Of a DNA stretch of 64,000 nucleotides, positions 48,521-62,756 are shown piece after piece (the first letter of the stretch is position 1; every line of letters begins with the position of its first letter). A program made the translations under genes and the position numbers. Under the pieces are notes generated by a model, which ran no database searches, had not been told where the DNA came from, and saw nothing but the letters and a program-made list of their open reading frames with translations. Source of the DNA: Perna viridis (lineage: Eukaryota); NCBI GenBank assembly GCA_037379345.1, contig CM074525.1, forward strand, positions 3,915,170 through 3,979,169, written 5' to 3'.

Positions 48521-48570
48521 TGCATCGGCCGGGAATCGAACCCGGGCCGCCCGCGTGGCAGGCGAGCATT
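48521..48570 (-). pseudogene. tRNA-Gly(GCC) 3' part, split by Tx1 copy A
   Basis: tRNA nt 22-71 abut the element's poly(A). Confidence 0.92.
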
Positions 48571-51500
48571 TTTTTTTTTTTTTTTTTTTTTCATTGTAAA
48601 AATAATTTTATTCATTAATATTTACAAGGTTGTGTTGGACCGGACAATACCCGGTTTTACAAATTCAACGAATATATATATATATATGTCTTTTAGATAT
48701 ACTTAATTTTGAATTTAGCCAAAGTTAGCCAATACATGTTAGAAGAAAGGAAGAAATAAAAATAGATAACAATGCTTTCTGCATACAAACACAGTTGTAC
48801 ATGTATCAAGTTGTATTTATATAAACAATATCTACAAGTAATCACAATAATTAGGCAAGAACATTTTCCTTTCATCAATGTTAAAAATCAAAAATGAAAC
48901 ACAAGTGAATCCATTTCTAGTCTTAAGAGTGGATTTCTATTAAGATAATATTTATAAAACTGGTTCATTTTGTTTTTCACTCTATATAAAGCAAAAGCAT
49001 ATTCAATGTATCTCTGAATTGTATATTTGAAAAAACGGACTGTTTCGATATTTTTGTTTTCAAACACTTTCAAATTACGTGATTTATAAATGACAAGTCT
49101 AGCTACACAAATCATGTAGTTCAAAAAGTATGTATTTATAAGCTTTGAAGTATTCAAATAACCTAGTAGGATAAGTTGTTCGTAGTCTATAGAGTTCACA
49201 ATATCTGCAGAACAATTCCTAAACATGTCAAATAATAAATCCTTTAAATAGTTGTGAAGTGGTTTCTGAAATGAACAAGTGACCCACAGATGAGACAAGT
49301 CTTCTGTTGATTGATTACAGCACTTACATATCTCATTATCTACAGTACCTATTTTATTTAATTTTTCAAGGGTAAATATAGAGCGATGTATCATGCGATA
49401 GTACAAACATCGGCAATCAGGCGTTAACGTTTCTTGATTGACAAGCGAGTATAAGCGTTTAAATTCTAGTTCAGGATAAAACTCCGCCCACTTCTTCTCG
49501 GCCGTAGGCTGTTCCCACGATAAAGATAAAATGACTGAATAGAAATTCTTAGTTGTACATGTATTGAAGAAAATTTCTTTGTCATTTTCGTCGATAATTT
49601 TGAGTATCGGGGTTTTGTCACCTTGGGGATTATTTACAGTTTTTACGTGTTTGTGCCATTCTAAAGGAATAGAAACGAGAATCTTTTGTAAGGATAACGC
49701 TATGTGTTCGGCATTCTCATCTGGATTATGCGATTGGATTATTTCGATTATTGCATTCGGATTTAGAAAACCTGGTACCACTTCATAGGATATGTGCTTT
49801 ACTAGAAACAAGCCTGCATCTATGAAATTTTGAAAGAGGAGCATTTTATTGTTATACTTAATCTCTGGATTACAAAAAATTGGGATATTATAAATCTGGT
49901 CTGGTTCCATTTTGAAGCTGATTTTATGTTTGATTCTGTAGAATGATTCCATCATTTCTTGATAAAATACCGGAAGTTGCTTAAGCTGGCTGTTATTTAA
50001 AACCAAATACACAATATTTTCGGCAACATCAAGATTATTGATATTTGTTATGAAATAGCTAAATGCACTTTTCCAAAGAGCAGTGCAATTAGGGTCTAAA
50101 TATTTATTAAGAAATTTTAATCTAAATGCTTGCATTTTTAAGTAAATATCTGGTATGTTTAAGCCACCATTAGCCTTTGCACCTATAATTGACTGGTATT
50201 TAATTAAAGGTGGTTTCCCTTTCCATAAAAAATTTAAAACTGCTGACCGGAGTTCAACTTTAATAATTTCAGGTAGGGGACAAACTGTTAGCGTATAATA
50301 TAAACGCGACATGATCAAAGTAGAGACGACAGTTGCGCGACCATGGAGGGTTAGCTGACGCTTGTTCCAAAGGGAGAGAATGGACTTAATTGTTTGAATT
50401 TTGTCTCTCCAATTAAGATATTCACAAGAAACTTTATCTTTACCAACGTAAATACCTAAAACTTTTGTAACATTTTCACTTCGTTTAAGTTTTAGATTAT
50501 ACAATTCTTGATCCGATAATTTACCGGCTCCGAGACACATAATTTCTGATTTATCTTTATTAATTTTAGCACCTGAAGCCTGACAGTATAAGTCAAGGAC
50601 CTCAAACACTTCACCTATAGACTCTTTGTCGGAAGTAAATATATTAGTATCATCGGCATGTTGAAAAACTTTACCCTCTTTCTCTGAATTGTGAATTTTA
50701 ACACCTATAATATTTTTGTTTTTAAATATAGCCTGTCCGAGAGGTTCAGCGGCCAAGACGTACAGGAGAGCAGAAACGGGACAACCCTGCTTAATTGAGT
50801 TTCTAATTTTTACGTATTTAGTTTGGAATCCGTTGCATTTAATACTGCCGCTTACGTCATTATAAAAAATTTTTATCCAACGAATAAAATTTGGCCCGAA
50901 TCCGAATTTTTCCAAAGCAAGATAGAGATATTCGTGATCGACTCGATCGAATGCTTTTTCTTGATCAACCTTAATCAAATACGCTTCTAAGTTGTCCTTC
51001 TCAATGACTTCTATAATGTCTCGTATGCTGGATGTTGTATCCGCGATATCGCGACCGGTTACACAACATGTCTGTGTTTCGGAGATGATACTAGGCAGAA
51101 CGATTTTTAGGCGATTCGACATAACTCTTGCCAGAATTTTGTAATCGACGCAAAGTAATGAAATTGGACGAAAGTTTTTAAGATTATTTTTATCTCCTTT
51201 ATTTTTGTAAACAAGATTTATCACACCATGGCGCATAGATCTAGAAAGGATTTGTTCATTTTCTATAACTTTGAAAATCTTCATAAAAATTTCACCAAAT
51301 AAATCGAAAAATTTGCAAAAGAACTCAACTGTTAAACCGCAGGGACCAGGTGACTTATTTTTAGCCATCCCGAATAAGGCCGAACGAATCTCGTCTAGAG
51401 TTACCTCAGATTCCAATATTTGCATGTTTTCTTCTGTAATTTTTTCGGAAATATAGTCAAGTATCTCCGCTGCCTTATCCTTATTAATTTCAGTACAAGA

Positions 51501-52686
51501 GTACAAGTTTTTATAAAATCTGTGGATTTCGTTCAAAATGTCGTCGGTATTTGTGAGTAAGTTACCGTCGGGAGTTTTGAGTTCTTTTATACAGTTATTG
51601 TTTTGCCTAAACTTTTCTAATTCAAGAAAATACTTAGAGTTTCGATCGCTTTCGATCGCCCAATGGGCTTTGGACCTGAGAATGGCACCTCTACATATAT
51701 CATGTTCATACTCTTTAAGTTTCATTTTGGTTTCTTCAAACTTAGTAACATTAAAATTTATATTACTTGCCGCTTGGAGGGACATTTTTTCATATTCACG
51801 CTGTAGTTTAAAATATTCTGACTTTTCTGCCTTTCTTTTATTCGTAGCAAAAAGCTTTGAAATTTGCTTAATTTTGAATTTTAAATTATCATACCACACC
51901 AGCGGTTCACTATTATATAAGTGACATTTCTTTTCATTTTCGATTAAAGTACGAATTTTTTCAGTGAACATAACGTCTTCTAATAACATGTTGTTGAAAA
52001 TCCAAAGGCCGGGGCCACGCTCTACATCTACAAAGTCGACACGCATCACGACGGCGGAGTGGTCGCTAAACGTATTGTGTTTGTAATAAACATTTTTGAC
52101 AAATTGTGACAAAACCCTAGAAATAAAAATGAAATCTATACGGCTTTGGCATAATTTATCACTAATAACTCTGCGCCACGAGTAACAACGGACTGAATGG
52201 TTTCTAGCTCTCCAAATATCATAAATATCACGGGTCTCGCATAATTGCACTAAACATTTAAAAGCATTATCTTCTATGTGAACTGACCTTTCTGGGCGGT
52301 CGAGTTTAGATAATGAGTTGTTAAAATCTCCGAGTAAAATGGTATTTTCTGACATGGGGATATTTTTTGATATTTTCTCAAAAAAGGCAACCTTTTCTTT
52401 CGCGACATTTGGAGCATAACAAGTTATTATATCCAATTCTCTATCGTCAACTTTTAACTTAATATGTAGATACCTGCCGTCAAAACTTTTTACATAAGAA
52501 ACATTATCTTTTAATCTATTTGAAATTAAAAATCCAACACCTTGCCTATGGGTTTCAGTACATTCGGCATATATTTTGCCATTCCATAATTTACTTAAAT
52601 TATTTTGAACGGACTCGTCCCAAAAAGTTTCTTGAATAGCAATAATATCAAACTTATTCTCTTCACAATATGTACTAAACAGTTCA
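48571..52686 (-). mobile_element. Tx1/L1-clade non-LTR retrotransposon copy A, 5'-truncated, inserted in tRNA-Gly
   Basis: Poly(A) (T23 at 48569-48591), AATAAA at 48607-48612, APE-RT ORF, AGCATT duplicated at 48565-48570 and 52687-52692. Confidence 0.92.
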
Positions 52687-61911: not shown

Positions 61912-62083
61912 GGTGGAGGGAGGAAACACAGTTCAGGTTGATAAAAAGCACAAATACTTATTTAATATTACAGCTAAGGTTAATAATCCAATAAAAGAAT
62001 ATCCACATGTGCGGATGACTCGTAAAAACGAGAAAAACTTTTCGATTTTTCACCCAGCTCAGAAAACGTGGCCGTCGTCTCAA

Positions 62084-62098
62084 ACCGGAAACCGGAAG
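62084..62098 (-). promoter_or_regulatory. Tandem ETS-like CCGGAA motifs at the element 5' end (putative internal Pol II promoter)
   Basis: ACCGGAAACCGGAAG within ~20 bp of the 5' junction; function inferred. Confidence 0.35.
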
Positions 62099-62756
62099 CC
62101 TCTCCAATTTTTGTCGATTTCTATAGCAATCGTCAAAATATCCCTATAGATAACATAGTTGATCTCACTATAAAAAAAAAAAAACCTAAAAACAAAAGCA
62201 ATACACGTAATTGTAAGTCTATCAGTGGTATTAATCGCACTATCCACCCGAAATCAGTGTGGAATGAACTCATCTCATTCATCGGATTGTTATAACAGTA
62301 CAAAGTTAAATCATTGGCGTATAGACCGTTGCTAACTATTTTCAAATTCTTCCGAAATATAACAAGACTGTAGACTTGTATCTTGAAGAAACCTGGTATA
62401 AAAATGTCGATCTCTTTAAGAAACCTGACCATGAAAAATATGCGTGTAGAATATATTAACACGTGCAGTTAATCTGACACTGGTAAACGATCTATCTTAT
62501 TGTTAGAGAACCGCAGATGTCTTTCTTTGTTTATTCTAATTCTATATGTGTGTTTGTGTGAATACTGCAGGATTAAAAGAAATAGTGCAGTTCATATTAT
62601 CTTTTTATAGAGACGAACCGTATATACCAAATGATATAAAACAAAATAACACAGAGCGGGTAGTTCAATTTCAATGTTGGATAATAACATCATGAACAAT
62701 CTGAAGATAACTCAATGTGCCACTACACGTATTGCAAACTAGTAGTAAAAAAGAAA

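Follow-up and report, generated by a model that had tools for sequence, protein, structure and literature searches.

Tx1-like retrotransposons of Perna viridis are aimed at a position in RNA polymerase III genes and not at one tRNA

Retrotransposons of several kinds use genes transcribed by RNA polymerase III (Pol III) as targets. The subject here is a stretch of 64,000 nucleotides of Perna viridis DNA (assembly GCA_037379345.1, contig CM074525.1, positions 3,915,170 to 3,979,169 of the forward strand; in the following, the window), in which two copies of a long interspersed nuclear element (LINE) lie within tRNA-Gly(GCC) genes, together with the Tx1-like clade to which this element belongs and whose target is a position within Pol III genes, not a single tRNA. 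TRE5-A and TRE3 of Dictyostelium are L1-clade elements with an apurinic-endonuclease-like (APE) domain, a reverse transcriptase (RT), and a zinc finger (APE-RT-ZF). Like the mussel elements, they are APE-type retrotransposons without long terminal repeats (non-LTR) and keep a constant spacing to tRNA genes of many types; 5S genes serve TRE5 as well, just as they serve sister families of the window element, and the tether between the protein of its first open reading frame (ORF1) and TFIIIB makes it the closest working model (PMC5911963). However, TRE5 integrates antisense at 40-54 bp upstream, and TRE3 on the downstream side (PMC5911963). Because of these positions, both spare the target gene. 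In P. viridis, the junctions likewise keep a set distance in tRNA genes of many types and in 5S genes, whereas upstream antisense insertion outside the gene was not found, the elements being intragenic and in sense orientation.

Mutsu and Dewa belong to the Tx1 clade. Mutsu of zebrafish resembles the mussel elements as a non-LTR element in the 5' half of 5S genes with many co-existing, often intact subfamilies (PMC5340908, PMC3706591). It is, however, described as restricted to 5S and sequence-specific, with subfamily-specific targets, and the main text on it makes no mention of tRNA (PMC5340908), whereas here identical copies occur in 5S and tRNA genes, and 5S accounts for 15 of 179 junctions. 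Dewa and Keno, the latter also a Tx1 element (PMC4494074), are target-specific elements of multicopy small-RNA loci as well, yet with one target each (tRNA-Leu array spacers and U2, respectively), unlike the eight families of P. viridis (PMC3706591, PMC4494074). Insertion into one gene with a conserved target sequence, as in single-target Tx1 elements, was not found for these families, whose junctions fall in 33 isoacceptors and 5S. NeSL-1_TV, LIN15_SM, and LIN25_SM are non-LTR elements specific for tRNA genes, but they are NeSL-related, carry a restriction-like endonuclease, and use one tRNA each (Pro, Arg, and Glu; PMC4640811). Dada DNA transposons also lie inside tRNA genes, with several lineages at the A box and one group in 5S, but they encode DDE transposases, with one family per target, which is credited to primary-sequence recognition (PMC8869645, PMC3706591). 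Ty3 and Tj1 apply a nucleotide-scale ruler to Pol III genes (Ty3 integrase binds TFIIIB, and Tj1 uses tRNA and 5S genes), but these are integrase-bearing LTR elements, and their insertions lie 1-10 bp upstream of the start site (PMC5911963). Elements tabulated in PMC5911963 and PMC5006619 insert beside genes, and no intragenic LINE with a range across tRNA genes and 5S was found in the open literature, a search that did not extend to Repbase and most subscription papers (PMC10946416, PMC10294476); Repbase holds 14 oyster L1-Tx1 entries, possibly including relatives (PMC10294476). The eight-family clade would work like TRE5, yet it is a member of neither TRE5 nor Mutsu.

Target range of the window family and its sisters

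The original prediction had taken the family of the two window copies (the window family) to be specific for tRNA-Gly(GCC) and had named the collection of genomic 3' junctions as a check. This collection refuted the Gly specificity, since most copies lie outside tRNA-Gly(GCC). A DNA search with the 3' end of the element returned 27 matches from 25 candidates, among them all 21 sites of the exact 3'-end pattern, and yielded 24 3' ends as well as one old fragment without an end. Two of the 24 ends lie in Gly(GCC) genes and 21 are spread over 16 other isoacceptors; at the remaining one, 9-10 nt of tRNA-Ser(AGA) precede a different element (18 tRNA types in total); two pairs are array duplicates, and the ends therefore correspond to approximately 22 events. 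Every end is found at the same D-loop position in gene orientation, including those in genes with a long arm (Leu) or an intron (Ile, Met).

Sister families extended this picture. An endonuclease search scored 150 of 592 candidates, and the best 118 of the 131 listed matches outside the window family were analysed, besides one diverged window-family copy. These 118 loci cluster into seven families, with RTs 51-71% identical to that of the window family. Although the loci were selected by endonuclease homology, blind to the target, all 107 with a visible 3' end of their own are at the site (no end was visible in the other 11). Of these, 85 are in library tRNAs, 12 in 5S genes, and 5 in tRNA-like units, and another 5 were assigned by visual inspection (2 Ser(GCT), 1 head of a short interspersed nuclear element (SINE), and 2 short tRNA starts); 3 lie in Gly(GCC). 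Overall, 179 junctions were collected, a count that includes passer-by elements and is biased towards arrays: 141 in 33 isoacceptors, 15 in 5S, 6 in tRNA-like units, and 17 that were not mapped by the script but are tRNA-like by eye. Ser(GCT), Glu(TTC), and Arg(TCG) raise the total to 36 isoacceptors for 18 amino acids, and no junction in Trp or Gln tRNA genes was seen among those collected. In the genome-wide 3'-end census, which was made without families F3, F5, and F6, the 100 of 379 pattern matches that were listed (C1 to part of C5) included 48 poly(A) sites, 47 of them at the target and 1 nested at the target site, as well as 6 chance matches without poly(A). Heads of a tRNA-derived SINE-like repeat are entered at the same D-loop position (L145, L254), and all 15 junctions in 5S lie at +26-28. 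Two F4 copies, one in 5S (L058) and one in tRNA-Gly (L059), are identical over 5392 bp, and the 5S copies are therefore no specialised subfamily; similarly, the F2 copies L116 (5S) and L117 (Phe) differ by 3 mismatches and have the same endonuclease. None of the 80 distant loci (26-39% identity) from a metagenome scan showed a junction with a tRNA or 5S gene, and contigs of other samples added no new junctions.

Three further observations concern individual window-family and related loci. L028 has a 5' flank of tRNA-Glu(CTC) and a 3' flank of tRNA-Ala(TGC) and is probably a recombinant of two copies. In L043 (6836-6942), a full U6 copy is fused to the 5' end of a window-family copy in tRNA-Thr(AGT), which is a U6-LINE template-switch chimera. 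Four loci (L041, L055, L131, and L139; G000:C13:21.1 Mb) show a tRNA-Met(CAT) gene apparently with an intron of approximately 18 nt; an intron in tRNA-Met is known in plants and unusual in animals.

What sets the insertion site

Four observations characterise the insertions: the target range, the fixed position, the entry of the same proteins into both gene types, and the sparing of U6. Regarding position, the tRNA junctions fall within nt 18-24 in 135 of 141 cases (mean 21.4, standard deviation 1.3). In interval models, the mature +1 was the best anchor (log-likelihood -144.0), ahead of the D-loop GG (-153.5, a gap inflated by approximately 2 log units through one of the 141 rows, Ala(CGC), with a mis-set GG anchor) and the D-stem (-166), while a ruler anchored at box B was rejected (-280). 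Some tRNA junctions are array duplicates, and collapsing them to 117 events keeps the order of the anchors.

Metazoan U6 genes use SNAPc and Brf2, not TFIIIC. The P. viridis U6 array (G000:C2:52.18-52.39 Mb; L168-L197 and L225-L237) comprises at least 189 U6 genes in units of 690 bp. Over all but approximately 31 kb of its 239-kb span, 189 of 189 U6 5' regions were whole, and the tRNA-like A/B-box unit present at a ratio of approximately 1:1 carried 10 poly(A) junctions, approximately 8 of them independent. A genome-wide search for a poly(A)-U6 pattern found 0 cases. The identities of 5S, U6, U1, and 7SL were confirmed by Rfam. As a side observation, the degenerate tRNA-like A/B-box element paired with each U6 of the array has its own terminator and may yield a separate transcript or act as a U6 helper, and tRNA fragments cap two insertions in the array.

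With somewhat better than even confidence, the sequence evidence leads us to suggest that the ribonucleoprotein of the eight-family clade docks on the TFIIIC-dependent Pol III initiation complex (TFIIIC/Brf1-TFIIIB), and a host factor would then set the insertion position. TFIIIC and TFIIIB may serve as the target cue because tRNA and 5S genes share them; in yeast, the region covered by TFIIIC extends to about +20, and DNase hypersensitivity at +27 to +37 is brought about by TFIIIB (PMC11724288). The nick of the APE endonuclease would fall on the template strand, in the first bent and accessible DNA immediately beyond the A box, preferably before an A, which would let the poly(A) prime reverse transcription. 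To close the 5' end, either a second nick would be made at a distance of approximately 14 bp or the end would be joined to a more distant point of the array. Among the 5' ends of 140 elements, as classified by a script that misassigns a few of them, 56 have a short target-site duplication (TSD; 6-31 bp, median 14), 6 are joined within 50 bp, and 44 at a point over 50 bp along the unit, while 23 are without class and 11 without a 3' end; many insertions therefore leave a whole gene upstream. The candidate tether is ORF1, as in TRE5-A, whose ORF1 binds TFIIIB and which targets both tRNA and 5S genes (PMC5911963). It might act via a basic C-terminal motif with a Pro-Asn/Ser/Lys pair in which all eight ORF1s end, a candidate tether or merely a nuclear signal. 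The tip of the endonuclease loop, which varies among families having the same target, also supports docking.

Several points weigh against docking. None of the 24 window-family ends lies in 5S, and the 5S argument therefore rests on the sister families F0, F1, F2, F4, and F5. One true off-target copy was found, a 195-bp F4 copy at a non-tRNA site. U6 also scores badly under the matrix of tRNA sites, and its absence thus does not separate a tether from sequence recognition. Furthermore, 7SL uses internal boxes, and 12 of 12 7SL heads are intact. By eye, the distance between the upstream AT-rich element and the nick is approximately 3 nt greater in 5S than in one tRNA example, and a TATA-to-nick ruler is therefore not exact. 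In addition, the endonuclease has a long Tx1L-type loop, as in sequence-specific elements, and TFIIIA alters the hold of tauA on DNA (PMC11724288). Finally, the window array holds 37 Gly 3' halves and 35 Glu genes, with 9 LINE ends in Gly and 1 in Glu(TTC), a 9:1 bias that docking leaves unexplained.

A rather doubtful, though the best surviving, alternative is that no protein tether exists and that the endonuclease would read DNA shape, nicking kinked, nucleosome-free DNA made by TFIIIC/TFIIIB past the A box and in 5S. L1-type endonucleases choose bendable DNA through the betaB6-betaB5 loop (PMC1950540), the hypersensitivity induced by TFIIIB at +27 to +37 (PMC11724288) would provide such DNA, and the slightly unequal tRNA and 5S offsets as well as the spread of 5-6 nt suit this explanation. 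However, just 1 checked copy is off target in a 723-Mb genome rich in open, bent sites such as Pol II promoters, all copies share one orientation, and the second bend, which lies upstream of the A box, is occupied by none of them.

It is unlikely that the endonuclease itself reads a degenerate D-loop sequence in the classical Tx1-type manner, with 5S carrying an acceptable site by chance. Target choice in the Tx1 clade is credited mainly to the endonuclease (PMC4494074), and the Tx1L-like loop, the 135 of 162 junctions compatible with a cut before an A, the entry into SINE heads and degenerate tRNA-like units, and the presence of isotype biases agree with this. Yet the matrix from 51 tRNA sites holds 4-7 bits in all, far too little for a 723-Mb genome. 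Moreover, it gives the 5S site a negative score, while 291-460 of the 1542 positions of the 5S unit score at least as high and better-scoring ones stay unused. The tRNA and 5S sites share no motif, a near-identical 10-mer of tRNA-Arg(CCT) and 5S is cut at points 4-5 nt apart within it, and +1 fits better than the GG.

Loose insertion, with the pattern arising from selection against other sites and from array amplification, is very improbable: array duplicates (L029/L030; two Phe copies in L045) and the off-target copy speak for it, but near-identical young copies lie in different genes and chromosomes with distinct TSDs, and selection would leave the reverse of an intragenic window of 6 nt. 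Specificity of the family for tRNA-Gly(GCC), suggested by both window copies and by 9 of the 10 LINE ends of the window array, can be dismissed, as 22 of 24 window-family ends lie in other tRNA types and 5 of all 179 junctions are in Gly(GCC).

The window copies, their neighbours, and their relatives

Within the window, the target is a tandem array of tRNA-Glu(TTC) (plus strand) and tRNA-Gly(GCC) (minus strand) genes in 1.22-kb units (42418-64000), which extends past the window on both sides. Both LINE copies are on the minus strand, the strand of the Gly genes. The predicted same-point poly(A) joints in tRNA orientation were confirmed, the joint following nt 21-23 in both copies (48569-48592 in copy 1, 56402-56411 in copy 2), with the final two A's of each poly(A) possibly derived from the target. 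Copy 1 (48569-52687) consists of the 3' untranslated region (UTR) with a poly(A) of 24 A (48569-48887) and ORF2 (48888-52687), which is 5'-truncated within the endonuclease coding region and lacks residues 1-18. It splits a tRNA-Gly(GCC) into a 3' part (nt 22-71; 48521-48570) and a 5' half (52687-52713), with a TSD of 5-6 bp. Copy 2 (56402-62104) is full length (5.7 kb) and adjoins the 3' part (nt 22-71) of the tRNA-Gly(GCC) that it entered (56354-56403). It comprises the 3' UTR with a poly(A) of 10 A (56402-56752), ORF2 encoding 1283 aa (56753-60604), ORF1 (60656-61911), which is split by a 1-nt deletion and encodes 418 aa in intact copies elsewhere, and a 5' UTR (61912-62104) with a start common to full-length copies. 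Its 5' end is joined approximately 701 bp further along the repeat unit, with this repeat of the target unit and an intact tRNA-Gly (62757-62827) upstream (62105-62827); the joint is equally well a long duplication or a deletion of the Glu part of an array unit. The two copies differ by 12 ORF2 residues (24 of 3797 nt) beyond the junction, by 60 gap positions in the 3' UTRs, and in their 5' junctions, and they are therefore independent insertions and no array duplication, as originally proposed.

CCHC zinc knuckles in ORF1 are a feature of the Tx1 clade. In Pfam, the window-family ORF2 matches PF03372/PF14529 (endonuclease), PF00078 (RT), and PF13966 (zf-RVT, zinc), with catalytic motifs present, and the scan of this ORF2 returned no RNase H family. 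The CCHC patterns of ORF1, which also has an acidic tail, align across all 8 families, although the PF00098 match is weak and below the cut-off; a single-sequence structure model of the ORF1 N-terminus was poor (predicted local distance difference test, pLDDT, 41). The betaB6-betaB5 loop of the endonuclease has 11 residues, the Tx1L length, in all families, and the best PDB match of the endonuclease is 2v0r, an L1/Tx1L loop chimera (PMC1950540), without gaps over the loop. Judged by ORF2 domains, CCHC ORF1, and loop length, the eight families are Tx1-like LINEs, and the expectation of an APE-type, target-specific element inside the tRNA coding sequence was borne out by domains and junctions.

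In a FastTree analysis of 87 RT sequences, a common ancestor (support 0.91) unites the eight families and 24 proteins of other origin, one of which bears the label Mytilus edulis; the tree is made up of proteins of 1150 to 1500 aa, with two lacking a full RT left aside, and its references are unnamed or Mytilus-labelled only. A U1-targeting family of the same genome falls outside this group. It accounts for the 5.6-kb gaps in the 7SL array, which were considered as 7SL insertions and rejected as such: a tandem unit of 1.69 kb contains both 7SL and U1 genes (L218-L220; G000:C2:48.84-48.87 Mb), and three 5.6-kb copies of this distant Tx1-like family (RT 38% identical) lie at one U1 point in sense orientation with TSDs of 10-15 bp.

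Many copies of the eight families are young, with both ORFs intact. Expression was low in a 2026 RNA run: approximately 19% of it yielded 41 reads, most of them oriented as sense transcripts would be, and the reads were not assignable to a source copy. Full-length window-family and F4 copies share a motif at the 5' end that we take to be ETS-type and that could act as an internal Pol II promoter.

At 42417, another tRNA-Gly gene of the array is joined to a third element, which is non-autonomous. This 1.55-kb poly(A) element lacks an RT and encodes a 262-aa protein without a match in Pfam or Atlas (window 41835-42417; L232 6100-7690); its 5' part lies on the minus strand at 41835-42417, at the same tRNA-Gly site, with a 14-bp TSD. 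In tRNA-Gly, in 5S, and in the unit of the U6 array, the element sits at this same site, and a family approximately 75% identical to it has a 490-bp form of which the U6 array carries 15 amplified copies; the element and these relatives are likely non-autonomous passengers. The window also holds, at 1-41834 and starting approximately 3 kb before the window, a head-to-tail array of approximately 12 units of 3694 bp that are 99.97% alike, each encoding a 647-aa Mutator-like transposase (PF20700). This Mutator array is nested inside the non-autonomous retroposon, itself within the tRNA-Gly gene.

Implications

Target choice of animal APE-type site-specific LINEs is usually credited to the endonuclease reading DNA. 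As identical copies enter unrelated sequences that share only the transcription system, host-factor tethering becomes directly testable in an animal LINE, and since many copies are young with both ORFs intact, the system is open to assay. The elements also offer an in vivo footprint of Pol III complexes and a possible route to multicopy safe-harbour insertion, and they present eight families sharing one finite, gene-destroying niche. Tentatively, and with confidence somewhat short of even, we propose that they represent an old, widespread, so far undescribed animal LINE clade, probably of molluscs, with an independently evolved TFIIIC/TFIIIB tether. It would direct nucleotide-scale insertion into any TFIIIC-dependent gene (tRNA, 5S, and active SINE heads) and be shared by eight co-existing autonomous families and their non-autonomous passengers. 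Certain Tx1 elements regarded as "sequence-specific", Mutsu for instance, may be versions of this clade with a narrower range.

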